The notes beneath the pieces are model-generated. The model had not been told where the DNA came from. It was given only the letters and a program-made list of their open reading frames with translations, and ran no database searches. Positions 5,149 through 53,948 of a stretch of 53,948 nt of DNA are shown here, piece after piece. Numbering within the stretch: the stretch's first letter is position 1; each line of letters opens with the position of its first letter. Source of the DNA: a virus (Duplodnaviria > Caudoviricetes); the IMG/VR virus record IMGVR_UViG_3300037722_000592, positions 1 through 53,948 of that record; one strand, written 5' to 3'. A program made the position numbers and the translations under genes.

Positions 5149-5257
5149 TTTTGAAAACCTGGTCGGCAATCAGTCCGCCGCCCTTTTTTGTAGTTAATCC
5201 ATACCGCGTCGCGGCGATAAGCGGGGCAGCCAGTCGCTGCCATGGAGGTAGTAGAAG

Positions 5258-18458: not shown

Positions 18459-19667
18459 ATGGCAACTTACGCAGCGGCGGCAAGCCTTGAAGAGGCGAAA
18501 AAGAAGAACGATGCAAAAAAGCAGGGTATGGGTGTACCGCCGGCAAAGTTCGGGGAAGGGGCGACTCTAGTGGATGTCCAGAAAGGGCAGGTGGCGAGGG
18601 ACGGGGGCCGGGGTCAGATGGCCCAGGCCCACACGCCAGGGCAGGGGATACCGCTGTCCTCTTATCCGGCGAGTATGCCGGAGGGGCCGGTAGCCACCCC
18701 CATTAGTCACGTTTCTGGTGGCTTCCCAGGCGACCCTAAGCCATTACCCATAGGGCTTGATGGCTTGATTAACTCGCCCACCCCCGCGCAACAGGGAGAC
18801 ATAGTCCCGCCCCGGGAAAGCACAGGCGGCGTACCGCCGCCGCCAGCGGCAGCCGGCCAGGGGCAAGGCCCAGGCCTTTATTCGCCCGAAGTTGCCCCCC
18901 AGGCCAATGGCTCGGCTGGAGTCCCCGGCGCTCCCGTTTCTCTCGGCGAAGCCCCCGGGGTTGATCGCAAGACGGCGCTCAATAAAGGCTTAATGGCTGC
19001 CGGGCTCACCATGCTTGACCGCGGTGGACGAAGCTATGACGCCCCGGTCTCGGCTGGTTCGATCATGGGCCAAGGTGGTTTGGTCGGGATGCAGGCCTAC
19101 GACCAGGACATCCAACGACAACAGGTCGAGAACCGCAATCAGCAGTCCCTCGAAAAAAGCGAGCTTGATATTGCCGGGGCCAAGCAGGATCTCGAAGACA
19201 AGCCGCTGGAGACCCAGCGCAAAAAGCTGGTCAATGAGAAACTGGAAGCGGCGATTGACGCCTACAGGGATGACAGCAAGCTTAACAAAATACTGGTTCA
19301 GGCCAAAACCGATTATGCCAACGAAAAAAATCCGGAGCAGCGCAAGCGGATCGAGGAGTTTATCCAGGCGTTTTCCGGGACCGGCGAAGACAAGGTTAAC
19401 CAGCCGTGGGTGCTTGGTACATACCCTGTGCCAAACGGCACCAATGAACTGACTGGCGAACCCGAATATATAGATATGCCCTACGCCTTCAACAAAATTA
19501 CCCAAGAGTCCCGGCCGATTTCCTATCCTGGAATGACAGCACCGCAAGGGGCACCGACTAAAGAGAAAATCCTTGACGACTCCACGGCCGCTAAAATACT
19601 CCGGGAGGTTGGTGGGGACAAAGAAAAAGCAATCGCGCGTGCTCAAGAATTAGGTTATACAAAGTAA
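18459..19667 (+). CDS. Internal virion/ejection protein
   Basis: Pro/Gly-rich N-terminus, GLMAAGLTML segment, coiled coil; position. Confidence 0.55.
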   Translation: MATYAAAASLEEAKKKNDAKKQGMGVPPAKFGEGATLVDVQKGQVARDGGRGQMAQAHTPGQGIPLSSYPASMPEGPVATPISHVSGGFPGDPKPLPIGLDGLINSPTPAQQGDIVPPRESTGGVPPPPAAAGQGQGPGLYSPEVAPQANGSAGVPGAPVSLGEAPGVDRKTALNKGLMAAGLTMLDRGGRSYDAPVSAGSIMGQGGLVGMQAYDQDIQRQQVENRNQQSLEKSELDIAGAKQDLEDKPLETQRKKLVNEKLEAAIDAYRDDSKLNKILVQAKTDYANEKNPEQRKRIEEFIQAFSGTGEDKVNQPWVLGTYPVPNGTNELTGEPEYIDMPYAFNKITQESRPISYPGMTAPQGAPTKEKILDDSTAAKILREVGGDKEKAIARAQELGYTK

Positions 19668-25600: not shown

Positions 25601-28600
25601 GGCTGGGGCGGCCTGGCCAACGCCTTCGCCAATCCGGTCACCGGCGATATCAGGGAAGGCTGGCAGGGCAGGGTTAAGGATCTGGCGGGACTGCTTACCG
25701 ACAACGAGCTTACCGTCGCTCGGAACAGCACAAAGGCGGCCCATTACACCAGCGAAGCCGTGGCCAGCCAGATGTGGGAGGCGGTTAAGCGTCTTGGCTT
25801 CAAACGCGGCAACGTCCTGGAGCCGTCAATGGGGATCGGCAACTTTATCGGCCTAACCCCGGAAGGCGTCACCGCCAACGTGATGGGAATCGAGTACGAC
25901 CCAATCACCGCCCGAATCGGCAAACTCCTGTACCCGCAAGCCACCGTAATCCATTCGGGCTTCCAGCAGGTACCGCTCCCGGAAGGCGTTTTTGACCTGG
26001 TAATCGGCAATCCGCCGTTCGGGCAAGAATCCCTGAACTTTCAACACTCCCCGCACTTGAACCGCCATTCCATCCACAATCAGTTCTTCCTGGCCGGGAT
26101 CGATGCCTTGCGGCCCGGCGGGATCCAGGCCATGGTGGTATCCAGGTACTTAATGGATTCCAAGGATTCCGGCGCTCGCGACGCTTTAGCCGCCGAGGCC
26201 AAGCTACTGGGCGTGGTCCGCCTACCCGAATCCGCCTTCAAGGAAAACGCCCGCACCGATGTGGTCACCGATATTATCTTTCTGCAGAAGAAGACCGAGG
26301 AGGAAATCGCCGCCACCGAGAAAGAAGAAGCGCCGGCCTGGACCAAGAGCACGGAAATTGAAGTCAACGGCGAACAGATTGCGGTTAATAAGTATTTCCA
26401 GAACAACCCCAGGGCCGTGATCGGCACAATGACCACAGCCAGTTCCCAGTTCAGCGGCGCATCATTGGTTGTGAAACTGGAAAAAGGCGCCGACCTTGCC
26501 AAGCTGATCAATGAGCGAACCGGCCAGATTCTGCCCGCCGGAGTCTTTACCCAGGAGAGCACCGCCGACCAAGCCCGAGACCATTTCGAAACCATGCGCG
26601 ACGGCATGGAGATCGCCCTGGCCGGACATGAAGACGCAAGTATCGCCTTTAACGACCTCGGCGAGTTGGTCCAGGTCCACGAGCGGGAGACGGAAGGCGG
26701 CGACTTTGTCCTTGCCAAGCGGGTTATTGGTGTTGGCTCGCCCTGGTCGCCGCATCTTGCCATGGACAAAGACGGCAACTGGTTCAGGGAAGTCGATAAA
26801 CTGGACGAAAAGGGCAACAAGATCAAGGTTGCCGACGAGAACGGCAAACTCACCAAGCGCAACGCCAAAAAACGGCAGGTCTTCAAAGACGTAGCCGAGA
26901 TTCCCCAAAGCATGACGATGAGCAAGCTCGATTACGGGCGGCTCAGGGATGCGGTCTCCTTGCTTGACGAACTGGTGGCGCAGGTCAATCTCGAAATCAG
27001 CGATGCCCCCAGCCTGGAGATCGAAGGAAATCGCAAGCAGCTCCGGCGGGCCTATGACGCCTTTGTCAAGAAACACGACCGGGTAAATGCCCCGGTCATC
27101 AATAAACTGATCAGTGACCTTCCGAACGGGCCGCTATTGATGGCCCTGGAGACTGTCTATAAGCCGCCTATCAGAAAGGACCGGGCCGAGAAGCTAAACA
27201 CCAAGCCACGGCCGGCCATTGTCAAGGAAGCGGCTATCCTGGATGAACGGGTGGTTTTCCCTTACGAGTCCCCGACTTCGGTCGAGTCAGCCAGCGATGC
27301 TTTGGCCGTGGTGCTGTCTGAATCGGGCCGAGTCGACCTTGGCCGGGTGGCGGATCTGCTCGGCCAAGGTCAAGATGAGGTTATCAAGGCCCTGCACCAT
27401 GAAGCCGAAACCCCGTTGATCTTCCTCGATCCTGAAACCCAGGAATGGGAAACCGCCGATGAATATTTGGGCGGCAACGTGGTAAAGAAGCTGGCGGCGG
27501 CCAAGGGGGACAGCGGCTATCCCAAGAACGTCGACGCCCTGGAGGCCGTGCAGCCGAAGGCATGGACCGCCGACCAGGTAACGCCCACCCTGGGCTCCAC
27601 CTGGATTCCCACCGATGTCTATGCCGGGTTTATTGCATCCCTGACCGGCAAGCCGGCGAAGGTGAATTTCTCGCCGCTGACCAATACCTACGCCGTTCAG
27701 GGCGAAGGCGGGACCCCAAAGGCCCAGAACTGGAATACCCCAAAGCGGAACGTGGTCGAGATTATCGAGGCGGTTCTGAACAGCCGGCCGATCCGGATCA
27801 CCGAGACTATCGGCTACGGCAGCGAGAAACGCACCGTTACCGACCAAGACAACACCGACCTTGCCAATGAAAAGGGCGAGGAAATTCGGGAAGCGTTTGA
27901 TGACTGGGTTTTCCAGGATGCCGGTAGACGCAAGCAGCTGGTGGATATCTTCAACCAAAAATTCAACGTCCGGGTTGTGAAGCAGCGGGACGGGCAGCAT
28001 CTCAAATTGCCGGGCAAAGTGCCGGATTCGGTAATCAAGATGCGGCGCCATCAGCTCAACGGGATCTGGCGCGGGATTGTCGACCGCTTTGTTCTCTATG
28101 ACCACGCAGTTGGCGCCGGCAAGACCTTTACCGGCATTGCCCGGGCCATGGAACGCCGCAGAATGGGGCTGTCCCGTAAGCCGCTGGTTGTGGTCCCGAA
28201 CCATCTGGTGGAGCAGTTCGCCGCCGATGCCTACAAGCTCTATCCTGGCGCCAAGGTGCTGGCGGCAGGCTCCAAGGATCTAAACCCGAAAAAACGCCGG
28301 CGGATGTTGGGCAAGATCGCCACCGGCGAATGGGACCTGGTGATTATGCCGCACTCTTCTTTTAAGTTTGTGGGGATTTCACCGGATACCGAAAGCCGTT
28401 TCCTGGAAGAGCAACTTCGTTTGGCGGAACAGGCCATTGCCGAGGCGCAGCAGCAGGCGGAGGAAGACGGCCTGGCCGGACACCGGAAACCGATCACGGT
28501 CAAGGAAGCCGAACGGCTCCGGGACACGATCCAAGGCCGGCTCGACAAACTCCGGACCAGGGGCAACAAGAAAGACCGGATGCTGAGTTTCGAACAGCTC

Positions 28601-31600
28601 GGGGTCGATGATCTGACTATCGATGAAGCGCACGAATTCAAAAACCTGTTCTACCACTCCAAGCTATCGGTCCGGGGGATGAACCCGAAAGAAGGCTCGG
28701 CCCGGGCCTACGATCTGTGGACCAAGGTGCGGGTGCTCCAGGAAAGCAAAACCGGCTCGGTTGCCTTTATGACCGGCACCCCGATCTCGAACAGCGCCGT
28801 CGAGATGTATGGCTTGATGCGTTATCTTGCGGCCGACGTGCTGGCGGATATGAACCTCGAACACTTTGACGCCTGGCGCTCTCAGTTCACCACGGTAACC
28901 ACCAAATATGAACCGACTGATAGCGGGCGCGGCCTCAAGGAAGTTAACCGGATCGGCCGGGACTGGTCGAATATGCGGGCCTTGATGGACGCCTACTACA
29001 CCTTTTCCGATTCGGTAAGCAACGGGGATATCCAGGCCTGGTACTCGGAAGACAACGACGGGGCCAGGTTCCCGATTCCCGAAGTAAAAGGCGGAGGCCG
29101 GCAGCAAGTCAATGTTGCCCCCACCGAAGCCCAGGAGCGGATCATTCAAGAGGTTGTAGCCAGGTACGAAGGCCTTGACGGGATCAAGGATGTCAAGGAG
29201 CGCAATAAAGAGCGCCTGCGCCTGATGGACCGGGCACGGAAGGTTTCCCTCGATGTCCGGGTAGTTGACCCTGCGACCGATTCAAAAGAAAGAGGGGGCA
29301 AGCTTGACGCCGTAGCCCGGCAGGTCCACCAGATATACCACGAGTGGCGCGAAGACAAGGGCACTCAGCTGGTCTTCCTCGACCGCAGCGTCCCAAAAGC
29401 CAAGGGTGATGCCGGGAAGATCCAGAAGTACGATGCTTTGCTCCGTGATCTGGAGGCTGCCGAGCGCAAGGGCGATGACGATAAGGCCCGGGCGGTGATC
29501 GGCAAGTTGGAGAAATACGACTACAACGAGATGCAAGAGCTGAAGATAGCGCAGACCGGGAGCTGGAACGCTTACCGGCAGATCAAAGAAAACTTGGTCG
29601 GCCTGGGAATCCCGGAAAACGAAATCAGATTTATTCAGGAAGCCAATACCGACGAACAGAAGAAGACCATGTTCGACGAAGTGAACGCCGGCCAGATCCG
29701 GGTCTTAATCGGGTCTACCCCACGGCTGGGCGCCGGCACCAACGTCCAGGAACGGCTGGTGGCCCTGCACCACGTTGACGTTACCTGGAAGCCATCCGAT
29801 ATCGAACAGCGCGAAGGGCGGATTATCCGGCAGGGCAACAGCCTGTTCGCCAAGTACGGCGAATCCTTCAAGGTCATCATTAACGCCTACACCACCGACA
29901 CTACCGTTGACCAGCGGCTCTGGGATCTCAACGCCACCAAGATGAGAATGATCAACGGGATCCGGAAATACAACGGCGACTTCAACATGGAGTTTGTAGA
30001 CGAGGACAGCGTGAGCATGGCGGAAATCGCAGCCCATGCCTCCGGCAACCCCCTGCAACTTGAACGGGTCCAGCTGGCCGCCGAGATCGATCGCCTGAAC
30101 CGGTCAAAACGCTCATTCGCCCGGCAGCAATGGGGGCAGAAAGACGCCTTGGAAGAGGCTGAAGCCAATATCAAAATCTTGCCGGAGACCATCAAGGCCC
30201 TGGCGCCGGAGGCGGAGAAGATAGCGGCGGAGATTGCCATGGTCGCGGAAGAGGTTAAGAGCCGGACGGTCACCATCGACGGCAAGGAATATGACCGCGG
30301 TCCTTGGGGTTCTAATGCCCACGATGCTTTGGCCGAGAAACGGGACCAGGCCAAAAAGAAGAAAGAGAAGTTTGAAGCCGATATCAACGGCAAGGTCTTT
30401 ACCTCTTTCCAGGACGCCAGCGCCGCGATTGATGATGTAATGGGAGACGGCGCCAACTTCGACGTGGAACTGGACGGCGAGAAATTCATCCGCCATCGCC
30501 GGGCCATAGGGAAGGTGGTCGAGCTTGCCAACGCGGTGATCGACAAGGAAGGTAAGGGGGCGGAGGTTGACTACACGCCGCTGGCCAAGATGCGAGCCTA
30601 CGGGGTCGATATCGATTTGGCCATACAGGTTGTCGACGACGGCAAGGGCCGCACCATCGAATTCCATTTCACCGGCAAGAAAGAGGCCAACGGTCAGCCC
30701 TTAACCTTGGTCCGCAGTATTTACGAAGCCAACCTTGGCGTTGACTATTACGCCCACAGCGCAATGTACGGCATGTTCAGCCGGCCGCTGAACGATGTAA
30801 CTTCGATCCCGAACCGGCTGAAGCAATCGCGCAAGAGGTTGGCGGAAGCCAAGGAGATGGCGCCGGAGCTGCGCAAGCTGGTCGATAAGCCATACCCCAA
30901 AGAACAGGAGCTGAGCGACAAAAAAGACCGGCTCAATGCGGTGGAGCAAGAGCTATCGAATTCGGCCGCCCCGAGCAAAGGTAAAACCACCGACGACGGC
31001 GAGGTCAAATTATCGCAATCATCCTCCCCCAGATCGGGCCAGCTGTCGACCGCGAGAACCCTGCAATCCATCGTGGACAGCTATCTGACCAGCAGCGGCC
31101 GGCGCGACCTGCAAGTGTCTGTGGTGCAGACCGTCGACCAGTTGCGGGCCGGCCTGGTTTTATCCGAAGGGGTAAGCGGCAACGTGGAGGGGGCCTTTGA
31201 TCCCCAGAGCGGCAAGGTCTTTCTGGTGGCTGACAATATCGCCACCACGGAGGCATGGGGCCGCATCCTGCATGAGATCACCCATAAAACCAGAGCCGAA
31301 CAGGGCTGGGGCGGGGTGTTCGGACGCGAAGCCGAGACCATCCTGAACGAAATCGACAAGCGCCTCGCCGCCGGGGCAACGGCCTGGAAGAAAGCCGAGC
31401 AACAAGCCAGGCAAGCCAGAACCTCCGCCGAGAACCTGCGGGAAGAAACTATTACCTACTTCCTGGCCGAACAGGCCAACAGCAACCAATCATTATGGCG
31501 CCGGATCGTCAATGCCATTCGGGCCTGGGCGGTGCGAGTCGGCCTGAAGCGCAAGGTCTCCGATGCGGATATCGTGGCCCTGGCGGAGAATTCGGTGCAG

Positions 31601-34600
31601 AGCCGGGCGCGGTCAACTGTTTCCGAAATGGAAAGTGCTGGCGATACCGTCCCGGCCTTCTCCGAGTCCAACGACATTCGGTACAGCCAGGCCGAGCTTG
31701 CCGCGGCAGCCAAGGCGTTCTTCTCCAAAAAAAACCCCTTCCTGGCCGATAAAGCCAACGAATGGCTGGATAAAGCCGATCCGAAATGGCGGGACCGCTG
31801 GGAGAATATTGTTTATATGGTGGCGGACAAGGATGATCCTAAACGCCTAATCCAAAACCGCTACGGTGAGCAGAGCGAAGAAACCGACTACCTGATGGCC
31901 GAGCGGCTCAGGGGGAAACAGACCGCCGCCGAGGTGGAAAAACTAGCCAGGGAAGAGGTTAACCCGCTGCTGGAGTTTCTGGCCAAAAGCAAGCTGGAAA
32001 TCGCCGACCTGGAAGAATATGCCATGGTCAAGCATGTCCCCGAACGCAACGCGCAAATGCGCCGGATCAACGCTAAACAGTATCTCGGCAACATGACAGC
32101 GCTGTTCACCGGAAAAAAAGAAGAAGAACTGCGGTATGAGATCGGCAATGCGGCGGCCGAGATTGACCGCGAGGACCGGCGCGACAGCTACCTTGACCTG
32201 TTGGCCAAGGAGTTCGCCGGCCTGGACGATTACGGCGACAAGGTGCGGGCGGGAAGGGAGAAACTTGAGGCCCGAGAGTTCACCGCCGAAGAGATAGATA
32301 AGGGAACCCCAGAGCGATTGGAGCGCAACCAGCGGGCCGCCGAGCGCCGTGTTGACCAGTTGTTGAAGCTCCGGGGCCAATGGGGAGACCGCAGTCTTCG
32401 GTTTGCCGGGATGACCGACGCGGAAGCGGCAGAGATTCTTGATAAATGGGAAGCTGACCGACGCTACCCCGAGGTTGAGCAGGCCAGGAAGCAGCTTGCC
32501 AAGATAAACGATGGCCGCCTGGTGGCATTGATTGAAGGTGGTGAGATCACCAAAGACCAGGCCAACCAGATCCGCTCTACATATAAATATTATGTGCCCT
32601 TCAACCGGGAAGGCTTTTCGGATGGCAAGCCCGCTACCGGTAGAAGCACCGGGCCGCTTGGCAAGGCGATCAAAGGTGCCTCTGGGTCACTTCGCCGGGT
32701 GGTGGACATTCTCGCCCATAGCGTGGCGAATCGCCAGGCGGCAATCAGCCGAAAGCACAAGGCTTTGGTTGGCCGGAAACTCTACAACCTGGTCCGGGAG
32801 AATCCCGATCCGGACAACTGGTGGATAGAAGAGCAGCCCAAGGAGGCCGGCCACGATCAAGATGGCAACGTCACCTTCCACAACCAGTTTAAAGAACCGG
32901 CCAACGGGGTCCCCCTGAAACTGGATGGCAAGATATACACGGTCATGGTCAACCGCGAAGACAACACCATGATGCGGATGGTCGAGTCGATAAAGAATAT
33001 GGATGTCGGGATGGGACCGTTTATCCGGGCGCTGTCCAAGATAAACCGGCTGCTCGCCGCCCTGAACACCTCCTTTTCGCCAGAGTTTATTCTTACCAAC
33101 CTACTGCGGGATATGCAGACGGCCGGGATTAACCTTGAAGATTCGGAAGGGAGGGGTGCTCAGAAGCAGATTTTTAAGAATATGCTTACGGCAATCAAGG
33201 GTATCTATAAGGCGGAACGCGGCACCGACAGCGAATGGGGCAAGAAGTACCGGGATTTTGAGAAGAACGGCGGCAAGATCGGCTGGATGCAGTCATACGA
33301 CACCATTGAAGATCTGGCCAGCGGTCTCGGTGAAGAGATGAAGCTTTACCAGGAAGGCCACACCGCCAAAAAAACGGTGCGGAAACTTCACGACCTCCTG
33401 AAAACATCCAACACCGCCATTGAAAACGGAGTGCGGTTGGCAACCTATGATTATCTGGTGAATACCAAGGGGCTTAATAAGCGCAAGGCGGCGCTGATCG
33501 CCAGCAACCTGACGGTTGACTTTACCCGGCGGGGCGCGGCCGGGCCGAATATCAACGCCCTTTATATGTTTGCGAATGCGGGAATTCAGGGGAATATCCG
33601 GATGATTAAGGCCGCCGTGCGAAGCGGGCGGGTGCGAACCATGCTTGGGGCTATTGTCGGCACCGGTTTTATAATGCACTTGCTCGCCCTGGCGACCGGC
33701 GGCGATGACGATGACGGTATGGCTTTCTACGACAAAGTGCCGGACAGCATGAAAGAGCGCAATATGATCGTCATGCTCCAGGACGGCAAACGGGTTACCG
33801 TGCCGATGCCATACGGCTATAACATCTTTTTCAATCTTGGCGATGAACTGGCCGAGATGATGGTGGCGGCCATGGCGGGCCGGGAATACAAGCAGACCAA
33901 AGGGGTGGCCCGGATGTTCTCGGTGTTCTCGAACACCTTCAACCCGATGTCATCAGCTACTTTGCTCCAGACAGTGCTGCCGACCGCACTGGACCCGGTT
34001 GGCTATATTGCGGAAAACAAGACTTGGTTTGGCGGGGACTTGATGCCGTCCGGGAACCCTTTTGCCACAGTGCCCGAGCCTAATTCGCAACGGTTCTGGA
34101 AATCGGTATCGCCGATCAGTAAGGCGGTTGCTCAATCCTTGAACCGCCTTACTGGCGGCGACGCGGTGAAGCCGGGCCTGATCGATGTCTCCCCGGAAGT
34201 CCTTGACTTGATTATTGACACCTACTCCGGTTCGGCCGGCCGGTTTGTCAAAGACACTATGATGTTACCGGTCCGGGCCGCAACCGGGCAGCTGGAGGCG
34301 AATAAAACGCCGATAGCCAGGCGCTTCTACGGCGAACAGTTTGAGGGGGTTAATTCCGGGATATACCGGGAACAGGTCAGGGAAGTAATGACCGTCCACA
34401 ACCAATACCTGGCGGAACCGGACCGCGCCCGGCGCCAGGAGATCAAGGGAAAGGAACTTTTCGGGCTCATCCCGCTGGTTAAGGAATCTGAAAAGGTGAT
34501 CGGAAAACTACGGAAGATTAAAAAGATTCGGGAAGGGAGGGGTGACGACACGACCTTGCTGGAGGATCAGATCGAGAGAATACAAAAGAAGGTTATTGCG

Positions 34601-34621
34601 AGATATCGGCAAACCTTGTAA
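19667..34621 (+). CDS. Giant 4984-aa polyvalent virion protein: InPase-like (~21.7-22.1 kb), N6-adenine methyltransferase (~25.4-26.3 kb), SF2/SNF2 helicase (~28.0-30.0 kb, DarB-like), zincin-like peptidase (~31.2-31.5 kb), LPD38 (~33.7-34.3 kb)
   Basis: ISIENP.GS.RSG...YGY.KGT.G.D.DHVD...FDEHK; LEPSMGIG and IGNPPF; HAVGAGKT, IDEAH, TGTP, GTNVQ, EQREGRIIRQGN; LHEITH...EE; YDKVP...KERN...VPMPYGY...ENKTWFG. Confidence 0.9.
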   Translation: MRDTFDRVAKKDKDSAGKGLGEVFARVAPERTIGDTATDIGIDLLKGAISVPESFVGLADIPTGGRVGKGLESIGYKPAEAKEILSDQYSPARKAAGQKVNEAQGLVDTVSAAIQNPSVIASGALESLPLMGAGGVVGRGLGILGKAGKMSGVLRGAVGEGAVSAGMTAEQIRGETDDKLLSPSQSALAAASGAATALFAQLGGKLAQKAGIGDVDTYLARLPGEEAKRVKKNLVRRAVEGFVSEGVFEELPQSVQEEIAQNVALGKPAFEGVDQAAALGMLSGGLIGGGFNALNSAGTDTPADESTPPADVPAKPPGPLANAAAAGGIPGLGDTLRTHAFVPDDRRGPEAARLRARDETKAQFEDNLAGLNTRSRGIPSSASQSAEVFAAAGPTELEKQVALRTQREAELEQTFSSLQTEEQQTANRDKAKDEAGLDPIHNLRTEIKKRGGLNLDNLKVDYDNETTKALIKKLPGIVKRGGAVELDDIADEMRHYGYKSADDLLRALVESPTRREAEARAVKGIDAGYGHDNRLNESADELDSKGFEPVFAQRPAVDLNLGDKVVTGQDANLPADEYEVKGETSDGRIILEDGVRREVDAFDALNIEGIKRSGKQGFGVPGAVEPSAPVRQPGSSSRESKGVGGDSSPASTEQVTNPASTAHGQEVNTSPSEPMKKAENYKKAHVNVDGHQISIENPVGSMRSGQDDAGKRWEQELKADYGYFKGTVGYDKDHVDTFIKPGYKGGSETVHIVNQHKKDGSFDEHKVVMGADSSADALAVYNQNYESGWTGGKSVVAMPAVQFGKWVKSDAPKTGELLDGEARGLATIEQIKALIPAKKHSMIREQLAEVEELLAEGAPGYTVGQWAETLADLADNQEKWKFGDKNADRPAAEAIIGQVDPAGQYGISYDFKQRGGWAFTIRDLNGRVNGEPLGEKDMDGTFTRISKSIFRLTPSELLKEIAKQQDAFGIIDGGATSDSEEDTNSQDIGPQADRDAKRGKTEPEAGAFTPDESEVRPQEVTGVIKAKDVYGNTHYISQAQLDSGKTLLRRLNKKGEPLEVENTLVHRDNIDLTGGKTTAAHKGALYIAGKEDKGYASPAMAEQGIKRLGQDIDDYTIEEVGGRYVAIHKKVSGGNQKGANGDVRTGKSQPDQEVQVADDGDQSADSGRDGQGRQAELRIEELSEKAIIIKGNTREHKDRIKSASPIRALWNKGKGGWVFPKNREAEIRESLKDLLGEEANTQPSQPGESAATDRSVDYSWAIREPPPQVSAPMVIEPRVTVSYRGRELSGKGYAVPGIEGLAVKVVPPNGSKTDSTKMGWSVWVGDDLVYVNPPTVRATEHLDTAQEAIKVATPKLRRIFTAMQQGGFSGVAQATGDQQQEAEKQTPDASDTSAPSGATSSPNQPFVDAIATRIEEWVSTGTNGGARALDRQWERGAVKRFYDSYLKGSFAGSKTGEWASAKVAAGKADSFDGLKAALAKLVAVKPAPSTPVIPQKEPWQMTRAEYLAAPKTGDKYDGEAFRSGRHSESVRRAIQNNESVPVEVLADYPGLQVKETPESLTKQPVKEKDTPKEQEVKLKEQLKGFGESNKKFTAADAEEARRIMREQLGQLNMGLNPEMLKAGITLAGFYIEGGARSFSDYAKKMVADFGDAIKPHLRQFYEAIRQEPDFDTSGMTTYAELELRKDVPAVESTPDPKSLDAVADYEVIFADENLRFQFQDELDDLFNHKILALARALRDRGWTMDRSIDRLSKDGKRAEVELTQVGAGKNVVGLSVNGVRVEPGVNTADTANRIDATLAAGFDKAQEKADTESKEARDDTEPQGSNEGNGGAIRSLAPATSQSGDQALAGMAAEDGGDAGQGKQADLFGAGRGRKSATRDKRADGGRDAAPRSKRADAETVHPPGAGERSFGEPGTGRVEPAAIPGKNFKITKDLKLGEGSEEVKFQDNLAAISTLKRIEGEQRRATAEEQRTLARYVGWGGLANAFANPVTGDIREGWQGRVKDLAGLLTDNELTVARNSTKAAHYTSEAVASQMWEAVKRLGFKRGNVLEPSMGIGNFIGLTPEGVTANVMGIEYDPITARIGKLLYPQATVIHSGFQQVPLPEGVFDLVIGNPPFGQESLNFQHSPHLNRHSIHNQFFLAGIDALRPGGIQAMVVSRYLMDSKDSGARDALAAEAKLLGVVRLPESAFKENARTDVVTDIIFLQKKTEEEIAATEKEEAPAWTKSTEIEVNGEQIAVNKYFQNNPRAVIGTMTTASSQFSGASLVVKLEKGADLAKLINERTGQILPAGVFTQESTADQARDHFETMRDGMEIALAGHEDASIAFNDLGELVQVHERETEGGDFVLAKRVIGVGSPWSPHLAMDKDGNWFREVDKLDEKGNKIKVADENGKLTKRNAKKRQVFKDVAEIPQSMTMSKLDYGRLRDAVSLLDELVAQVNLEISDAPSLEIEGNRKQLRRAYDAFVKKHDRVNAPVINKLISDLPNGPLLMALETVYKPPIRKDRAEKLNTKPRPAIVKEAAILDERVVFPYESPTSVESASDALAVVLSESGRVDLGRVADLLGQGQDEVIKALHHEAETPLIFLDPETQEWETADEYLGGNVVKKLAAAKGDSGYPKNVDALEAVQPKAWTADQVTPTLGSTWIPTDVYAGFIASLTGKPAKVNFSPLTNTYAVQGEGGTPKAQNWNTPKRNVVEIIEAVLNSRPIRITETIGYGSEKRTVTDQDNTDLANEKGEEIREAFDDWVFQDAGRRKQLVDIFNQKFNVRVVKQRDGQHLKLPGKVPDSVIKMRRHQLNGIWRGIVDRFVLYDHAVGAGKTFTGIARAMERRRMGLSRKPLVVVPNHLVEQFAADAYKLYPGAKVLAAGSKDLNPKKRRRMLGKIATGEWDLVIMPHSSFKFVGISPDTESRFLEEQLRLAEQAIAEAQQQAEEDGLAGHRKPITVKEAERLRDTIQGRLDKLRTRGNKKDRMLSFEQLGVDDLTIDEAHEFKNLFYHSKLSVRGMNPKEGSARAYDLWTKVRVLQESKTGSVAFMTGTPISNSAVEMYGLMRYLAADVLADMNLEHFDAWRSQFTTVTTKYEPTDSGRGLKEVNRIGRDWSNMRALMDAYYTFSDSVSNGDIQAWYSEDNDGARFPIPEVKGGGRQQVNVAPTEAQERIIQEVVARYEGLDGIKDVKERNKERLRLMDRARKVSLDVRVVDPATDSKERGGKLDAVARQVHQIYHEWREDKGTQLVFLDRSVPKAKGDAGKIQKYDALLRDLEAAERKGDDDKARAVIGKLEKYDYNEMQELKIAQTGSWNAYRQIKENLVGLGIPENEIRFIQEANTDEQKKTMFDEVNAGQIRVLIGSTPRLGAGTNVQERLVALHHVDVTWKPSDIEQREGRIIRQGNSLFAKYGESFKVIINAYTTDTTVDQRLWDLNATKMRMINGIRKYNGDFNMEFVDEDSVSMAEIAAHASGNPLQLERVQLAAEIDRLNRSKRSFARQQWGQKDALEEAEANIKILPETIKALAPEAEKIAAEIAMVAEEVKSRTVTIDGKEYDRGPWGSNAHDALAEKRDQAKKKKEKFEADINGKVFTSFQDASAAIDDVMGDGANFDVELDGEKFIRHRRAIGKVVELANAVIDKEGKGAEVDYTPLAKMRAYGVDIDLAIQVVDDGKGRTIEFHFTGKKEANGQPLTLVRSIYEANLGVDYYAHSAMYGMFSRPLNDVTSIPNRLKQSRKRLAEAKEMAPELRKLVDKPYPKEQELSDKKDRLNAVEQELSNSAAPSKGKTTDDGEVKLSQSSSPRSGQLSTARTLQSIVDSYLTSSGRRDLQVSVVQTVDQLRAGLVLSEGVSGNVEGAFDPQSGKVFLVADNIATTEAWGRILHEITHKTRAEQGWGGVFGREAETILNEIDKRLAAGATAWKKAEQQARQARTSAENLREETITYFLAEQANSNQSLWRRIVNAIRAWAVRVGLKRKVSDADIVALAENSVQSRARSTVSEMESAGDTVPAFSESNDIRYSQAELAAAAKAFFSKKNPFLADKANEWLDKADPKWRDRWENIVYMVADKDDPKRLIQNRYGEQSEETDYLMAERLRGKQTAAEVEKLAREEVNPLLEFLAKSKLEIADLEEYAMVKHVPERNAQMRRINAKQYLGNMTALFTGKKEEELRYEIGNAAAEIDREDRRDSYLDLLAKEFAGLDDYGDKVRAGREKLEAREFTAEEIDKGTPERLERNQRAAERRVDQLLKLRGQWGDRSLRFAGMTDAEAAEILDKWEADRRYPEVEQARKQLAKINDGRLVALIEGGEITKDQANQIRSTYKYYVPFNREGFSDGKPATGRSTGPLGKAIKGASGSLRRVVDILAHSVANRQAAISRKHKALVGRKLYNLVRENPDPDNWWIEEQPKEAGHDQDGNVTFHNQFKEPANGVPLKLDGKIYTVMVNREDNTMMRMVESIKNMDVGMGPFIRALSKINRLLAALNTSFSPEFILTNLLRDMQTAGINLEDSEGRGAQKQIFKNMLTAIKGIYKAERGTDSEWGKKYRDFEKNGGKIGWMQSYDTIEDLASGLGEEMKLYQEGHTAKKTVRKLHDLLKTSNTAIENGVRLATYDYLVNTKGLNKRKAALIASNLTVDFTRRGAAGPNINALYMFANAGIQGNIRMIKAAVRSGRVRTMLGAIVGTGFIMHLLALATGGDDDDGMAFYDKVPDSMKERNMIVMLQDGKRVTVPMPYGYNIFFNLGDELAEMMVAAMAGREYKQTKGVARMFSVFSNTFNPMSSATLLQTVLPTALDPVGYIAENKTWFGGDLMPSGNPFATVPEPNSQRFWKSVSPISKAVAQSLNRLTGGDAVKPGLIDVSPEVLDLIIDTYSGSAGRFVKDTMMLPVRAATGQLEANKTPIARRFYGEQFEGVNSGIYREQVREVMTVHNQYLAEPDRARRQEIKGKELFGLIPLVKESEKVIGKLRKIKKIREGRGDDTTLLEDQIERIQKKVIARYRQTL
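25071..25112 (+). promoter_or_regulatory. Internal sigma70-type promoter and RBS inside the giant gene
   Basis: TTGACA (25071-76), 17-nt spacer, GATACT (25094-99); AAGGAGG at 25106-12. Confidence 0.65.
25119..25424 (+). CDS. Overprinted (+1 frame) 101-aa helical protein, distantly TnpV-like
   Basis: Perfect SD 6 nt before ATG25119; AIKHWQEWLPKM...HEAKELMLKRYILLEPE; host frame is a low-complexity linker here. Confidence 0.65.
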   Translation: MIQSHREAMKAMGAPYGHSPLQLRNLAIKHWQEWLPKMAATLAKENRLISSALAAAEKVQRGISEQMAAGMQHHEAKELMLKRYILLEPESEVLESLEQEG

Positions 34622-50957: not shown

Positions 50958-51189
50958 GACACGCCTCTCCTTTTTTTTGCGCAGGTTCAACCCAGAACCC
51001 ATCTTTCTTGAGCTGTTGCACGATCCGGCCCGATTCCCCGAGGCCCGCCGGGCCGTAGATGTTCCCGCCAGTCCCGGCCGTGATATGACACGTGGTCTGG
51101 TAGTTGAACCCGTGTTTCTTCGCCCAGTACCGCAGGGTAAACCCGGAGCGGCGGATCTTTTTGCTGATCGGACTCAACGACCGGCTCAT
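50929..51189 (-). CDS. Ner/Cro-like HTH DNA-binding protein
   Basis: IRRSGFTLRYWAKKHGFNYQT; second gene of the leftward operon. Confidence 0.6.
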   Translation of the reverse strand: MSRSLSPISKKIRRSGFTLRYWAKKHGFNYQTTCHITAGTGGNIYGPAGLGESGRIVQQLKKDGFWVEPAQKKGEACHGRKKPGSD

Positions 51190-51190
51190 C

Positions 51191-51394
51191 TCAGCACCCC
51201 ACCCGATAGAAAAAGTTACATTTATCGCACCTGTATTCTAGATACGACGTCTCAGGGCGGGTTATTCTGAGCCGGTGCCCCTTCTTCTTGATGCAGTCCG
51301 TTACGAGCGGGGGGACATCTTCGCCCCAATCCGCCGAATCTCCTAAATCGATCTTCCTTTCCGGCTGTGTAGCCGGAGATGGTGTTTGTGGCAT
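51191..51394 (-). CDS. Small Cys-containing hypothetical protein
   Basis: GGAGG RBS; first gene after the leftward promoter. Confidence 0.6.
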   Translation of the reverse strand: MPQTPSPATQPERKIDLGDSADWGEDVPPLVTDCIKKKGHRLRITRPETSYLEYRCDKCNFFYRVGC

Positions 51395-51430
51395 AAGGCA
51401 CCTCCCGTAGAGTTTTAATAGATTGTGGGG

Positions 51431-51461
51431 TATTCTTACATAAAGAATAGGATGGTGTCAA
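51431..51461 (-). promoter_or_regulatory. Leftward sigma70 promoter overlapped by a palindromic operator candidate
   Basis: TTGACA (51461-56), 17 nt, TAAGAA(T); TATTCTT-n5-AAGAATA at 51431-49. Confidence 0.65.
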
Positions 51462-51483
51462 GCGACAATGCTAAATAAAGCTA

Positions 51484-51511
51484 TTTACATTTATCGCTGG
51501 TGTGGTAAGCT
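51484..51511 (+). promoter_or_regulatory. Rightward promoter driving the cassette array
   Basis: TTTACA (51484-89), 16 nt, TAAGCT (51506-11) with extended -10 TG. Confidence 0.6.
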
Positions 51512-51512
51512 G

Positions 51513-51643
51513 GCATTACGATAAAACTCAGAGGAAGCGGGAGAACTTGAAATGAGTGGAGTAGAAGTAGCAACGGGCGAACTGGTAAAAGATAAGATTG
51601 GTGGCGGAACGGCCCCGCTTTCCGCTGAAGTGACGGGTTGTGC
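51513..51643 (-). repeat. attC-like site 0 (131 bp, degenerate outer box)
   Basis: + strand GCATTAC-gataaa-ACT-CAGAGG-AAGCGGG...CCCGCTT-[T]-CCGCTG-[A]-AGT-gacgg-GTTGTGC. Confidence 0.7.
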
Positions 51644-51926
51644 CCTCCGGTGCTTGGCCGCATTGGGGCATGTCGAAGTGGCTAATCAAAGATGCGGGGC
51701 GAGATATAAAGACGGCCCACGGGTGCCTGGCCCTCAAAATCCGCCCGTATGGTGCGACCTCACCGCCGGGCACGACGGCCCGCATCGACACGCCAGCGGC
51801 CATCATTGGGTGACAATGGATCGCCTAGACCTGATAGAGGTGAAGCCGATACCAGCCCTCTGCGCTAAATGCGGGGTTCGGTGGCCATGCGCTGACGCGG
51901 AGAAGGTTTTTAATGCCCTTATTTAA
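51552..51926 (+). CDS. Cassette 0 gene, Cys/His-rich hypothetical protein
   Basis: GGGAG RBS and ATG inside attC0; C...GHDGPH and CAKCGVRWPC motifs. Confidence 0.65.
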   Translation: MSGVEVATGELVKDKIGGGTAPLSAEVTGCALRCLAALGHVEVANQRCGARYKDGPRVPGPQNPPVWCDLTAGHDGPHRHASGHHWVTMDRLDLIEVKPIPALCAKCGVRWPCADAEKVFNALI

Positions 51927-51927
51927 G

Positions 51928-52010
51928 GCATAACGGCCAGCCTAACCGGGCGGCCCAAGATTAATTTTTGCCGGATGCGTTGCTCGCTCCGGTTGAGGTA
52001 CTGGTTATGT
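51928..52010 (-). repeat. attC-like site 1 (83 bp)
   Basis: + strand GCATAAC-ggccag-CCT-AACCGG-GCG...CGC-[T]-CCGGTT-[G]-AGG-tactg-GTTATGT. Confidence 0.88.
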
Positions 52011-52228
52011 GGAAATTTTTCAAATGGGGGGCGAAAAACCACCCTGGAAATCCGATCTACTTGCTGGCGTTTGTTGGAGTGTGGCTGGCCGCCATGAAAA
52101 ATGCTGACATTAAAAGCGGTATTATTGCGGGCATTGTTGCTACGTGTATTTTGGTGTGCGCGTATGTCTTAACTAGTATTTCTGTTGGGAAGGCTAACAG
52201 AGGGTTGGTTGATGATTATTACACATAA
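52007..52228 (+). CDS. Cassette 1 gene, small two-TM membrane protein
   Basis: ATG within GTTATGT box (alternative in-frame TTG51968 in the attC loop); stop is the TAA of ACATAAC. Confidence 0.7.
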   Translation: MWKFFKWGAKNHPGNPIYLLAFVGVWLAAMKNADIKSGIIAGIVATCILVCAYVLTSISVGKANRGLVDDYYT

Positions 52229-52309
52229 CGACAGCAATAAGCCGCCCATATACGGCGGTGGATTAAGGCCGGATGCGTGGTAGGTCGGCCTTAATTGGCC
52301 TTGTTATGC
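52223..52309 (-). repeat. attC-like site 2 (87 bp)
   Basis: + strand ACATAAC-gacag-CAAT-AAG-CCG-CC...GG-[T]-CGG-[C]-CTT-[A]-ATTG-gcctt-GTTATGC. Confidence 0.85.
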
Positions 52310-52334
52310 CTTTAAATCAAATGAGGAGGCGGCT

Positions 52335-52583
52335 ATGTTTGGGAAGGTAAGCGAAGGGGTAAAGATGCTGGCGCAACATATGGTCGACCATCCTGAAGAT
52401 TGGATACAAGGCCAGTACCATTACTCAAATACCAAATCACGAGATATTAATATTTGGACTGCAAACGGTGATAGCCATATTGCTTTTGAAGGGAACAAAT
52501 GCCTGAACAAAGCAGAGCAGAAATACTTGGCAAATGCTATCAAAAAATCAATAGCCAAACGAGCTATAGCGGCTACAGCATAA
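52335..52583 (+). CDS. Cassette 2 gene, hypothetical protein
   Basis: GAGGAGG RBS; stop is the TAA of GCATAAC; AT-rich. Confidence 0.75.
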   Translation: MFGKVSEGVKMLAQHMVDHPEDWIQGQYHYSNTKSRDINIWTANGDSHIAFEGNKCLNKAEQKYLANAIKKSIAKRAIAATA

Positions 52584-52668
52584 CGGCTGGCATAACCAGC
52601 CGCGCCAATGAAGTGAAACCTGTATGCCGCCAGCGTTCTTGCGGTCTGCGTTAATGCCCTGGTTGGGC
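52578..52668 (-). repeat. attC-like site 3 (91 bp)
   Basis: + strand GCATAAC-ggctg-GCAT-AAC-CAG-CCGC...GCGG-[T]-CTG-[C]-GTT-[A]-ATGC-cctg-GTTGGGC. Confidence 0.88.
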
Positions 52669-52689
52669 TTTTAAATTAGGAGGAATAAA

Positions 52690-52872
52690 ATGTTCGGAAT
52701 CCTTAAAAACGTGACTAAGGCCATTGTTGGTGTCGCAACCATTCCGCTTGATGTTGCCGCCGATGTAGTGACCCTTGGCGGTGCTTGTAACGATAAGAAG
52801 AGGCCCTACACCGCTGAGAAAATTTCTTCCATTATGGAGAATTTGGGAAAGGCTGTTGACCCTGACGAATGA
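52690..52872 (+). CDS. Cassette 3 gene, small hypothetical protein
   Basis: AGGAGG RBS; MFGILK...P.DVAADVVTLGG. Confidence 0.75.
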   Translation: MFGILKNVTKAIVGVATIPLDVAADVVTLGGACNDKKRPYTAEKISSIMENLGKAVDPDE

Positions 52873-53945
52873 AACAGCCCAACGACCAGCATCACCGGAC
52901 GCGGCAACTGAACATGATGAAAAAAATCCCAAGCTTCCCGCGTTCCGGTGAATGCGCTTGTTACACGGTCCTTGACCTGTTCTCGGGGATAGGTGGGTTT
53001 TCTTTGGGCCTGACGAGGGCCGGATTCCGCACCACGGCGTTTTGCGAGATTGAAGAATACCCAAGGTCGATACTGCGTAAACACTGGCCGGATGTCCCGA
53101 TTTTTGAAGACGTGAGGAAACTACATGCCGCAGACCTGCCAGAGCCAGTTACCGTTATTTGCGGAGGCTACCCTTGCCAGCCGTTCAGTCTTGCCGGGCA
53201 GCGAAAGGGCAAGGACGATGACCGCCACCTCTGGCCGGAGATTGTGCGAATTATACGAGAACTGGATGCCACCACAGGAAAGCCCACTTGGTGCATTTTC
53301 GAGAATGTTGCTGGCCACGTCAGTATGGGCCTCGACCAGGTGCTTATTGACCTGGAAGCTGAAGGTTACGCCGCGTGGCCGTTTATTGTTCCAGCTTGCG
53401 CCGTCAATGCCCCCCACCGCAGAGACCGGGTGTGGATTGTTGCCCACCATGCGGGCCGGACTGACCGGCGACATAACCCCGGAGAGGTGCAACGACAAGA
53501 ACCGCAACCTGGAAAAGGCATTGGCGTTGATGTTGTTTCCGCCTCCACACGCCAGTTGCTCGACCGGGGCCGGGACTTCCGGGCGGCAGGGCGGAATGAA
53601 CTTGCAGACTGCCGTTGCTTTGTTGCCGACTCCGACGCAAAGCATGGTGACGTTCCAGGACTTCGAGCAGGCCAAATACCACAGCAGCAAGAGGCCGGAA
53701 TACAGCAAGATTCTTTTGCCGACCCCCAAAGCGAACAAGCCAGAAGGGTATTCGAGCCCTGGTTTTCGGCCAACCCTGAATCAGGTAGTGACCTGCGAGG
53801 ACAAGCCGGTGAGTGGATCACTCTGCCCGGAGTTCGTGCGCGAAATGATGGGCTACCCGGAAGGGTGGCTAGATTAAAGGCTTTGGGGAATGCCGTTGTC
53901 CCGCAAATCCCGGAGCTAATCGGACGGTGCATAAGGGCCGTGTAA
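52869..53945 (+). CDS. Cassette 4 gene, C5-cytosine DNA methyltransferase alpha chain (start 52869 or 52914/52917)
   Basis: Motifs I DLFSGIGG, IV GGYPCQ, VI FENV, VIII HRRDRVW, X LKALGNAV; no motif IX in this frame. Confidence 0.9.
   Translation: MKQPNDQHHRTRQLNMMKKIPSFPRSGECACYTVLDLFSGIGGFSLGLTRAGFRTTAFCEIEEYPRSILRKHWPDVPIFEDVRKLHAADLPEPVTVICGGYPCQPFSLAGQRKGKDDDRHLWPEIVRIIRELDATTGKPTWCIFENVAGHVSMGLDQVLIDLEAEGYAAWPFIVPACAVNAPHRRDRVWIVAHHAGRTDRRHNPGEVQRQEPQPGKGIGVDVVSASTRQLLDRGRDFRAAGRNELADCRCFVADSDAKHGDVPGLRAGQIPQQQEAGIQQDSFADPQSEQARRVFEPWFSANPESGSDLRGQAGEWITLPGVRARNDGLPGRVARLKALGNAVVPQIPELIGRCIRAV
52877..52966 (-). repeat. attC-like site 4 (90 bp)
   Basis: + strand GCCCAAC-gacca-GCAT-CACCGG-ACGCGG...CCGCGT-[T]-CCGGTG-[A]-ATGC-gctt-GTTACAC. 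Confidence 0.9.
53125..53877 (+). CDS. Nested +1-frame methyltransferase beta chain carrying motif IX
   Basis: GAGGA RBS at 53114-18; LLPTP repeats; C-terminal LCPEFVREMMGYPEGW. Confidence 0.75.
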   Translation: MPQTCQSQLPLFAEATLASRSVLPGSERARTMTATSGRRLCELYENWMPPQESPLGAFSRMLLATSVWASTRCLLTWKLKVTPRGRLLFQLAPSMPPTAETGCGLLPTMRAGLTGDITPERCNDKNRNLEKALALMLFPPPHASCSTGAGTSGRQGGMNLQTAVALLPTPTQSMVTFQDFEQAKYHSSKRPEYSKILLPTPKANKPEGYSSPGFRPTLNQVVTCEDKPVSGSLCPEFVREMMGYPEGWLD

Positions 53946-53948
53946 CGC
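53940..53948 (-). repeat. Start of attC-like site 5 (truncated by window end)
   Basis: GTGTAAC, exact complement of GTTACAC at 52960; contains the methyltransferase stop codon. Confidence 0.7.

Follow-up and report, generated by a model that had tools for sequence, protein, structure and literature searches.

An array of integron-type cassettes at the end of a phage contig, probably inverted relative to its genes and with predicted start signals inside some attC sites

Clusters of attC sites without an integrase, called CALINs, have been described in phages by Qi et al. (2023, Front Microbiol, PMC9892861). In the text of that paper, such clusters place several attCs between small ORFs, have no integrase, and include DNA methyltransferase cassettes, and the right end of the phage contig analyzed here shares these features. 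The window is that whole stretch of DNA, with a length of 53,948 nt; two further arrays, in the viral contigs L082 and L055, are compared with it. The systems differ in orientation, in that every site is inverted in the window, L082, and L055, whereas the typical array in the paper's text, that of phage TJE1, is canonical. One site of the published phage P12002L (30005-30059, + strand) is, according to our model match, likewise inverted between two methyltransferase genes on the - strand. The text of Qi et al. 2023 (PMC9892861) contains neither "start codon" nor "translation," and its supplements may already show the P12002L inversion. The array is thus a variation on known integron biology and not a new system.

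Start signals have also been described inside integron recombination sites. According to a review (PMC8876359), ORF-11, ORF-17, and ORF-18 provide attI1 with a Shine-Dalgarno site and an ATG, and their translation runs across the crossover point and supports cassettes lacking start signals, which are about 20% of cassettes. As in the window, the start signals are carried by the recombination site itself; unlike in the window, the site is attI and the products are short peptides acting by coupling, whereas attC-encoded residues of the window are predicted to be fused to the cassette protein. The same review cites Jacquier 2009 for an attC containing a short ORF whose translation overcomes the obstruction by the hairpin and so aids the following gene. 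As summarized there, that case matches an idea from an earlier, sequence-only reading of this DNA, in which two of the attCs (attC2 and attC3) start leader ORFs; however, the attC in that case is of the canonical kind, being part of the preceding cassette, and the leader ORFs of the window are at chance level.

Two other systems invite comparison. Chromosomal integrons contain cassettes with an ORF opposite to the attC, such as toxin-antitoxin cassettes, which are scattered singles with their own promoters. They share with the window an ORF on the attC bottom strand, but here entire arrays are inverted and are apparently read from outside. T4-type phages carry promoter-early stem-loop modules between small genes, which are similar in being repeated intergenic stem-loops next to small accessory genes within a variable early region; these modules have no attC geometry and are not known to be integrase substrates.

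The right end of the contig (51513-53948) contains five complete attC sites, attC0 to attC4, and the first box of a sixth. As expected of a CALIN (at least two close attC sites with no nearby integrase), the five sites lie within 1.45 kb, and a TIGR02249 search of the full 53,948-base record returned 0 IntI candidates, the record being 89% complete by CheckV and its end cutting the array. The intI gene of a complete integron, which would lie with attI beside the array, was not found in this record, which stops at 53948, and the L082 record (59% complete by CheckV) likewise yielded no integrase. Judging from these sequences, we consider it likely that the contig end is an array of at least five integron-type cassettes without an integrase, with attCs inverted relative to the genes and start signals inside the attC in a subset of cassettes. 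The sixth attC (53940..53948, - strand) is cut off after box GTGTAAC and the letters GC, and one contig from metagenome run X1 extends 309 nt beyond the window end.

The reference for attC geometry was the aadA1 attC of R100 on its coding strand, which reads R''-5 nt-L'' (3 bp, extra base, 6 bp, extra base)...L'-6 nt-R'. A strict scan of the window for this geometry gave just two matches of at least 12/13, attC4 with 13/13 and attC1 with 12/13, on the - strand in each case, compared with 0.10 such matches per 54 kb in shuffles; these two scores equal those of aadA1, aadA2, catB8, aadB, orfF, orfA, and dfrA12. The geometry of attC0, attC2, and attC3 was fitted by hand, with one mismatch or extra bulge. 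Inverted 7-nt boxes with AAC and GTT frame attC1 to attC4, while attC0 has TAC in one box, which is also present in the run X5 copy of this site. A second box pair, spacers of 5 nt versus 6 nt, and two to three extrahelical bases, all on one strand and at set positions, were found as well.

Two covariance models, whose E values are rough, were used in addition: R1, trained on seven class 1 integron attCs only, and R2, trained on 11 phage sites in an alignment fitted by R1. In 54 kb, R1 gives its three highest scores to attC1, attC2, and attC4, each on the - strand, and the same search misses attC0 and attC3. Over 706 kb, R2 returned 13 matches and no others, namely 12 class 1 attCs and one TJE1 attC, all on the coding strand; among them are attCs outside the R1 training set (dfrA12, dfrA14, and three L085 sites). 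All five sites of the window lie on the - strand, and their boxes are given here as read on the + strand. attC0 (51513..51643, 131 nt) scores 21.1 bits with R2 (E = 0.0036, outside the training set) and 12/13 in the geometry fitted by hand. attC1 (51928..52010, 83 nt, GCATAAC / GTTATGT) has 25.6 bits with R1 (E = 1.5e-4), and attC2 (52223..52309, 87 nt, ACATAAC / GTTATGC), which has GCCGGATGCGT in common with attC1 (repeat family D1), has 19.9 bits (E = 6e-3). attC3 (52578..52668, 91 nt, GCATAAC / GTTGGGC) was found by R2 from outside its training set (40.5 bits, E = 8e-9). attC4 (52877..52966, 90 nt, GCCCAAC / GTTACAC) carries ATGATG (52914-19) in its loop; its 13/13 geometry was reached by 0/100 shuffles, its R1 score is 12.3 bits (E = 0.82), and its - strand DNA fold has z = -2.95. 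The strict scan, R1 (attC1, attC2, and attC4), and R2 (attC3 and attC0) therefore agree with the sequence-only reading that these hairpins are attC sites.

Copies of the sites recur elsewhere. Near-identical copies of attC1 with other flanks are present in runs X1 and X5, with a partial copy in X2; run X3 has a copy of attC3 with other flanks; and both arms of attC0 recur in a run X5 contig that omits the intervening 65 nt. The flanks of these attC0, attC1, and attC3 copies in other metagenome runs are unrelated. Folding gave a modest signal: fold z-scores of the hairpins range from -1.3 to -2.95, and RNA minimum-energy folds did not form the long-range stems of attC0 and attC3. An Rfam search returned no attC family and only three irrelevant weak matches.

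The attC top strand is opposite to the ORFs at 18/18 sites of the three arrays (seven in L082 and six in L055), which is not the arrangement of canonical cassettes, whose ORF lies on the attC top strand and upstream of its attC, in a sample biased by the discovery of L082 via an attC motif and of L055 via the methyltransferase. The motif GCATAACGGCYRGCMTAAC had one viral contig as its only result; a chance occurrence inside coding sequence was rejected when the match turned out to be an attC of the second array. That the sites are inverted relative to the genes, as the sequence-only reading had it, is borne out by spacer asymmetry, extra-base positions, and both covariance models, with the class 1 and TJE1 controls on the coding strand (8/8 strict matches of at least 12 in class 1 arrays). 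Because all five top strands in the window oppose the genes, each attC forms the 5' leader for the next gene, and start signals can therefore lie within the attC.

Could the sites nevertheless be canonical in function, each belonging to its upstream ORF, with crossover at the downstream G|TT and with the starts inside attCs being context-dependent fusions to a neighboring cassette? A stop codon lies within the first box for 14/18 ORFs of the three arrays, as is common in canonical cassettes, so gene layout alone cannot separate the two orientations, and the homology of ORF1, the methyltransferase, and a 118-aa protein of L055 begins right at the downstream box, as it would if that box were where the cassette starts. 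We nevertheless consider canonical function unlikely, given the opposite top strand at 18/18 sites by spacers, extra bases, and both models, the fact that the same tools assign the coding strand to class 1 and TJE1 sites, and a run X3 similarity to attC3 that continues 13 nt beyond the canonical crossover G.

As described by Nivina 2016 (PMC5027507), the location of extrahelical bases sets strand selectivity. The strand carrying these bases, which integron integrases recombine, would here be the coding strand, and this would put the crossover at A|C of the box adjoining the upstream stop codon. In the sense of the genes, a cassette would then read C, attC, leader, ORF, ...TAA, and the predicted cassettes (+ coordinates) span 51519-51933, 51934-52228, 52229-52583, 52584-52882, and 52883-53945. 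With crossover beside the upstream stop, attC, start signals, and ORF would move as a single cassette.

From their predicted reading frames, three genes, ORF1, ORF2, and the methyltransferase, must start inside or upstream of their own attC, at start codons that are probable choices. ORF1 (51552..51926, + strand) encodes 124 aa rich in Cys and His, and its best start is ATG51552 in the attC0 loop (Shine-Dalgarno duplex, -7.4 kcal/mol). On the + strand, attC0 consists of box GCATTAC (51513-19), an arm (51526-41), GGGAG (51539-43) and ATG51552 at the stem top and in the loop, a 3' arm (51614-31) with extra bases T51621 and A51628, and box GTTGTGC (51637-43); the 124-codon ORF crosses the 3' arm, just as the earlier reading had claimed. 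A homologue, P0002, is 73% identical to ORF1, whose residue 31 aligns to residue 5 of P0002, and GTG51630, inside attC0, corresponds to the start position of the homologues. The homologue at viral locus L089 begins MKDPA and has no attC upstream; searches of metagenome and genome contigs did not recover the neighborhood of the P0002 gene. Downstream of attC0, TTG51654 and GTG51678 are weak start candidates.

ORF2 (52007..52228, + strand, 73 aa) would start at the ATG inside the GTTATGT box of attC1, with GAGGT (51995-99) in the 3' arm as its Shine-Dalgarno site (duplex, -6.9). This ATG and an in-frame TTG51968, both pointed out in the earlier reading, are present; an alternative ATG at 52094 has a duplex of -6.8. 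ORF2 stops at the TAA inside ACATAAC, probably encodes a membrane protein, and has a weak match to phrog_30424 (residues 9-55 to profile 8-54, E = 0.0016).

The next two genes have start signals of their own downstream of the attC. ORF3 (52335..52583, + strand, 82 aa), with a GAGGAGG site and an ATG 26 nt downstream of attC2 (duplex, -12.3), stops at the TAA inside GCATAAC and had no family match in Pfam and PHROG profile searches. ORF4 (52690..52872, + strand, 60 aa), with an AGGAGG site and an ATG 22 nt downstream of attC3 (duplex, -10.2), matches phrog_33676 (residues 1-58 to profile 1-58, E = 5e-15). No ORF4 relatives were found in viral contigs, and two metagenome loci with relatives have an attC on neither side. 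In a run X2 contig, 36 unlike letters follow ORF4. The proposed leader ORFs are where the earlier reading placed them, in attC2 (ATG52273, 25 codons, ending at 52350) and attC3 (ATG52624, 16 codons, ending at 52674), but their significance did not hold up: an ATG anywhere in the attC occurs in 14/18 sites versus 13.5 expected, so an ATG merely present in an attC is at chance level and these leader ORFs carry no signal.

The last gene encodes a C5 DNA methyltransferase (52869..53945, + strand) of 358 aa from ATG52869, which overlaps the ORF4 stop (ATGA), or of 342-343 aa from ATG52914/52917; whichever of these is used, the attC4 3' arm and box are predicted to be translated in frame. Matches to Pfam DNA_methylase PF00145 (3e-39, residues 32-200) and phrog_363 (3e-77, residues 32-356) accompany motifs I, IV, VI, VIII, and X within a single open frame (LDLFSGIGG, PCQ, ENV, RRDRVWIV, and GNAVVP), and the stop is the TAA inside a GTGTAAC box. 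Among 517 viral relatives, most match from residue 34. The start nearest to LDLF is at most 8 codons before it in 73/74 homologue loci and 18 codons before it in the window, and 79 other methyltransferase loci have no attC; by homologue comparison, the extra N termini of ORF1 and the methyltransferase are unique to the window. As the sequence-only reading observed, no in-frame ATG, GTG, or TTG lies between ATG52917 and motif I, the next being TTG53004, after motif I. The start at ATG52869, if used, is not portable because it sits in the preceding cassette.

It could be argued that ORF calling has created the starts inside attCs artificially and that translation truly begins at unusual codons or farther downstream, the attCs serving as untranslated leaders or barriers. 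The methyltransferase ATGs do have weak Shine-Dalgarno sites (-3.0 to -3.7), and the candidates at ORF2 ATG 52094 and ORF1 TTG51654 and GTG51678 point the same way. This explanation is nonetheless improbable: a TTG53004 start would delete motif I, the methyltransferase frame is intact across 358 codons with all motifs kept, the start of the ORF1 homologue maps to 51630, within attC0, and a Lar-like protein of L082 fits its Pfam family from residue 3 when counted from an ATG in the attC 3' arm.

Counts across the three arrays likewise favor starts inside attCs in some cassettes. Such starts are found for 8/16 genes, more than in shuffles, four of the eight lying in sites backed by R2 alone (E from 3e-4 to 0.05). 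An in-frame ATG open to the attC end occurs in 11/16 cases versus 3.3 in shuffles, and in combination with a Shine-Dalgarno site in 6/16 versus 0.8, relative to a shuffle null that destroys the arms and with gene frames chosen with the ORFs known. The enrichment of in-frame starts in homologous arrays, which the earlier reading proposed as a test, is thus present with L082 and L055 included. In L055, the phrog_625 match of the 118-aa ORF begins at residue 30, the end of its attC. Genes with their own strong Shine-Dalgarno site and ATG downstream of the attC comprise ORF3, ORF4, and 6/11 genes in L082 and L055. The proposal that each inverted attC is a portable expression module therefore stands for a subset of cassettes, not for each. 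Similarly, attC0 and attC4 do cross the GTT box at the same codon offset, as proposed, but this is not general, since three other cases in L055 and L082 differ.

Translation of the array may be initiated in several ways. ORF1 would use the Shine-Dalgarno site and ATG in the attC0 loop, ORF2 the ATG in the GTT box with the Shine-Dalgarno site in the 3' arm, and the methyltransferase either a loop ATG or reinitiation at the upstream ATGA overlap. When translation ends in the 5' box or at it, the ribosome might melt the hairpin base and free start signals in the 3' arm, a form of translational coupling. The array appears to lie immediately right of a divergent regulatory region, to be read rightward, and probably to be cotranscribed as a whole. 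A possible rightward promoter, read by eye (51484..51511, + strand; TTTACA-16 nt-TAAGCT, with TG preceding the second hexamer), failed a promoter scan. A 13-nt repeat is present at 51216-51228 and again at 51485-51497, where it overlaps this stretch. No relatives of the array were found in GenBank phages, where matches were methyltransferase segments only, covering at most 11% of the query; for the SbcC-like ATPase upstream of the array, a single distant locus without attC was found.

That the hairpins merely resemble attC and are in fact intergenic regulatory stem-loops belonging to the phage (terminators, attenuators, or shuffling modules) would suit the absent integrase, the typical phage early genes, the modest fold z-scores, and the lack of an Rfam match, yet it is very improbable when a model built from class 1 sites only finds the window sites and the phage-site model finds class 1 attCs, no T run follows the stems on the + strand, and, as described in the text of Qi 2023 (PMC9892861), IntI1 recombines other attCs of this type from phages.

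Phage CALINs (since 2023) and start signals inside attI1 were already known. What the array adds is that entire phage arrays are inverted, so that the mRNA leader includes the attC and, in several cassettes, the protein is predicted to include part of it as well. Gene callers may misplace starts beside attC sites, which should serve as a warning for annotation. If integrases move such units, phages could swap anti-restriction genes together with their start signals. In three genes, homology starts precisely at the attC box, which could bear on how cassettes originate. Tentatively, we propose that inverted-attC cassettes may be a distinct, phage-adapted class, in which the attC, serving as 5' leader, is able to provide the start codon with its ribosome-binding site as well as the first 20-30 codons. 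In this view, attCs fused directly to the 5' ends of ordinary early and anti-restriction genes of phages (methyltransferase, Lar, and MazG) would have made them cassettes, and host integrases would shuffle the units between phages. The units would be expressed only where a phage promoter reads them in the direction opposite to normal integron transcription. If this proposal is true, the abutment of homology and attC box in three genes would be the footprint of cassette making.

The window spans an entire linear IMG/VR virus entry (53,948 bases; CheckV completeness, 89%), and its gene content is phage-like, including one 4,984-codon ORF, a single ORF at 19667-34621 on the plus strand. The array at its right end is preceded by minus-strand genes for an SbcC-like ATPase and a small helix-turn-helix protein and by a noncoding stretch (51190-51512) with a 13-nt repeat and a leftward promoter-like site. 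The repeat is direct and exact (51216-51228 and 51485-51497); it flanks the divergent regulatory region beside the helix-turn-helix gene, and its copies may form an operator pair. From 51552 to the contig end, every supported gene runs rightward: ORF1 (124 aa), ORF2 (73 aa), ORF3 (82 aa), ORF4 (60 aa), and, last in the array, a C5 DNA methyltransferase (52869-53945), all on the plus strand. At attC1 and attC3 (window 51910-51994 and 52590-52674), contigs from what is probably the source run are interrupted, and summed depth doubles because other contigs share both sites. Such interruption at shared attCs may be the reason that the record stops partway through an attC.

Because Rfam has no attC family, we built our own tests. 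The reference geometry was the aadA1 attC of plasmid R100, which reads on the coding strand as box, 5 nt, 3 bp, extra base, 6 bp, extra base, stem, and, after the closing stem, 6 nt and box. A strict scan for exactly this geometry, scored out of 13 on both strands of the 54-kb window, gave two matches of at least 12, attC4 (13/13) and attC1 (12/13), both on the minus strand; dinucleotide shuffles gave 0.10 such matches and reached 13 in 0 of 100. On class 1 integron arrays from four plasmids, R100 and R388 among them, all 8 matches of at least 12 lay on the cassette coding strand, and several real attCs were missed. A covariance model trained solely on seven class 1 attCs (R1) ranked attC1 (25.6 bits; E = 1.5e-4), attC2 (19.9 bits; E = 6e-3), and attC4 (12.3 bits; E = 0.82) highest in the window, these E values, like those below, being rough. 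All three are full-length matches on the minus strand whose coordinates agree with those read by eye; R1 noise begins at 11.8 bits, directly below attC4. A second model (R2), trained on 11 phage sites detected by R1 in the window and in two other viral contigs with attC arrays, L082 and L055, and so partly dependent on R1, added attC3 (40.5 bits; E = 8e-9) and attC0 (21.1 bits; E = 0.0036), both outside its training set, with noise from 14.2 bits. In a reciprocal check of 706 kb, all 13 R2 matches at E of 0.01 or below were class 1 attCs, including some absent from R1 training, or an attC of the published phage TJE1, on the coding strand. Contigs from other sediment and soil runs carry copies of attC1, attC3, and both attC0 arms between unrelated flanks. 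We conclude from these sequence comparisons that the window sites are attC-type sites. The attC 5' motif YAACGRCYRGC has a fourth exact match (51175-51185, plus strand) within the 5' end of the helix-turn-helix gene; by eye, a 9-bp partner was seen at 51270-78. Neither covariance model matched this stretch, which may be a decayed site or a chance occurrence.

The top strand of attC0 to attC4 is the minus strand in five of five cases, opposite to the genes. Likewise, L082 has 7 sites on the plus strand and genes on the minus strand, and L055, whose genes include a homologous methyltransferase, has 6 sites on the minus strand and genes on the plus strand. Phage TJE1 is canonical, with three sites on the coding strand, and phage P12002L has one inverted site between two methyltransferase genes. 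According to Nivina 2016, the location of extrahelical bases decides the strand used by the integrase, so the coding strand would be the one recombined in the window array. We infer a crossover in the box adjoining the upstream stop codon, in which case each attC would belong to its downstream gene. Of the 18 ORFs in the three arrays, 14 terminate at the TAA of a ...TAAC box (52226-28, 52581-83, and 53943-45 in the window); given the inverted reading, a cassette would end exactly at its stop codon.

Similar boxes occur elsewhere. Behind three L055 genes (4760-4812, 5122-5160, and 3613-3672), ...TAAC boxes with partial or no hairpins, called by neither R1 nor R2, look like eroded attCs within an otherwise intact array. 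In L089, a viral locus with an ORF1 homologue and no attCs, GCATAAC directly follows two genes (6405-6440 and 6733-6800); the first gene terminates at the box's own TAA, the second at a TAG just ahead of the box, and no hairpin follows either. The two L089 boxes may be remnants of earlier attCs or have arisen by coincidence.

The sequence-only reading held that attC loops supply translation starts. The sequence of ORF1 fits this reading, as ATG51552 lies inside the attC0 loop with a good Shine-Dalgarno (-7.4). The only ORF1 homologues found, protein P0002 (73% identical) and that of L089, become alignable at ORF1 residue 31; their starts lie four residues before this point and correspond to GTG51630, still within attC0. 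The first 26 to 30 ORF1 residues are thus unique to the window and attC-encoded. ORF2 has ATG52007 within its GTTATGT box and GAGGT in the 3' arm, a start that agrees with a weak PHROG alignment. ORF3 and ORF4 have strong Shine-Dalgarnos (-12.3 and -10.2) and ATGs 26 and 22 nt beyond the attC, and the ORF4 family profile begins at residue 1. The methyltransferase, as the same reading had noted, lacks an ATG between its GTTACAC box and motif I (LDLF); no in-frame ATG, GTG, or TTG lies between 52917 and this motif. Its start-to-LDLF distance is 18, 19, or 34 codons. Among 80 homologous loci, 74 have the motif and a start in open frame, and in 73 of these the start is at most 8 codons from LDLF; of the other six, three lack an open-frame start, one runs off the locus end, and two lack the motif by the pattern used. 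The L055 homologue has its own GGAGG and TTG 44 nt beyond its attC. Also in L055, a 118-aa protein starts within a 123-nt attC, and its PHROG match begins only at residue 30, the end of that attC; in L082, a Lar-like protein has its ATG in an attC 3' arm, and its Pfam match begins at residue 3.

Over the three arrays, the best start is inside the attC in 8 of 16 attC-gene pairs, four of which depend on weaker attC calls, and downstream in the other 8. The proposal that each attC is an expression module therefore fits half the pairs and fails for the rest, ORF3 and ORF4 included. An ATG anywhere in the attC is at shuffle level (14 of 18 sites versus 13.5; 33 ATGs in total versus 24.7 ± 4.5), so the short ORFs from ATG52273 in attC2 and ATG52624 in attC3, earlier read as leaders, are no evidence. 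Since GCCGGATGCGT is common to attC1 and attC2, their ATG may be merely inherited. An ATG in the downstream frame and open to the attC end occurs in 11 of 16 pairs versus 3.3 ± 1.6 in shuffles, an enrichment of the kind that the sequence-only reading proposed to look for in homologous arrays; when a Shine-Dalgarno duplex at least as stable as -5.5 kcal/mol is also required, the count is 6 of 16 versus 0.8 ± 0.9. Neither count was reached in 300 shuffles, a crude null.

The array is probably one transcript; a rightward promoter candidate read by eye did not pass the promoter scan. A terminating ribosome would open the hairpin base and free the 3' arm. For ORF2, the Shine-Dalgarno and ATG in the 3' arm would pair with the 5' arm until freed by a ribosome terminating upstream. 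For the methyltransferase, we give re-initiation at the ATGA overlap (52869) about an even chance, and use of the ATGs in the unpaired, A-rich attC4 loop a somewhat smaller one.

Nested in the methyltransferase gene (52869-53945), in the +1 frame, is an ORF of 250 codons (53125-53877, plus strand) that matches phrog_1008, "DNA methyltransferase" (3e-27). The same frame is open for 158 to 400 codons in 80 of 80 homologous loci and matches the nested protein in all of them (tblastn E, 1e-11 to 1e-41); its overlap with the main-frame match is 278 to 872 nt. A comparable nested pair is already annotated in GenBank for Paenibacillus phage Likha, and the gene looks like a conserved dual-coding one.

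Qi et al. 2023 (PMC9892861) described phage CALINs (attC clusters lacking an integrase), in some of which methyltransferase cassettes occur, and reported that IntI1 recombines phage attCs. A review (PMC8876359) covers both the start signals of attI1 (ORF-11, ORF-17, and ORF-18) and the case of a short ORF located within an attC. In the literature searched, including passages of Qi 2023, we found no statement of whole-array inversion in phages or of attC loops encoding protein N-termini. Phage CALINs are already known, and the apparent addition here is the inversion of whole arrays together with attC-encoded N-termini.
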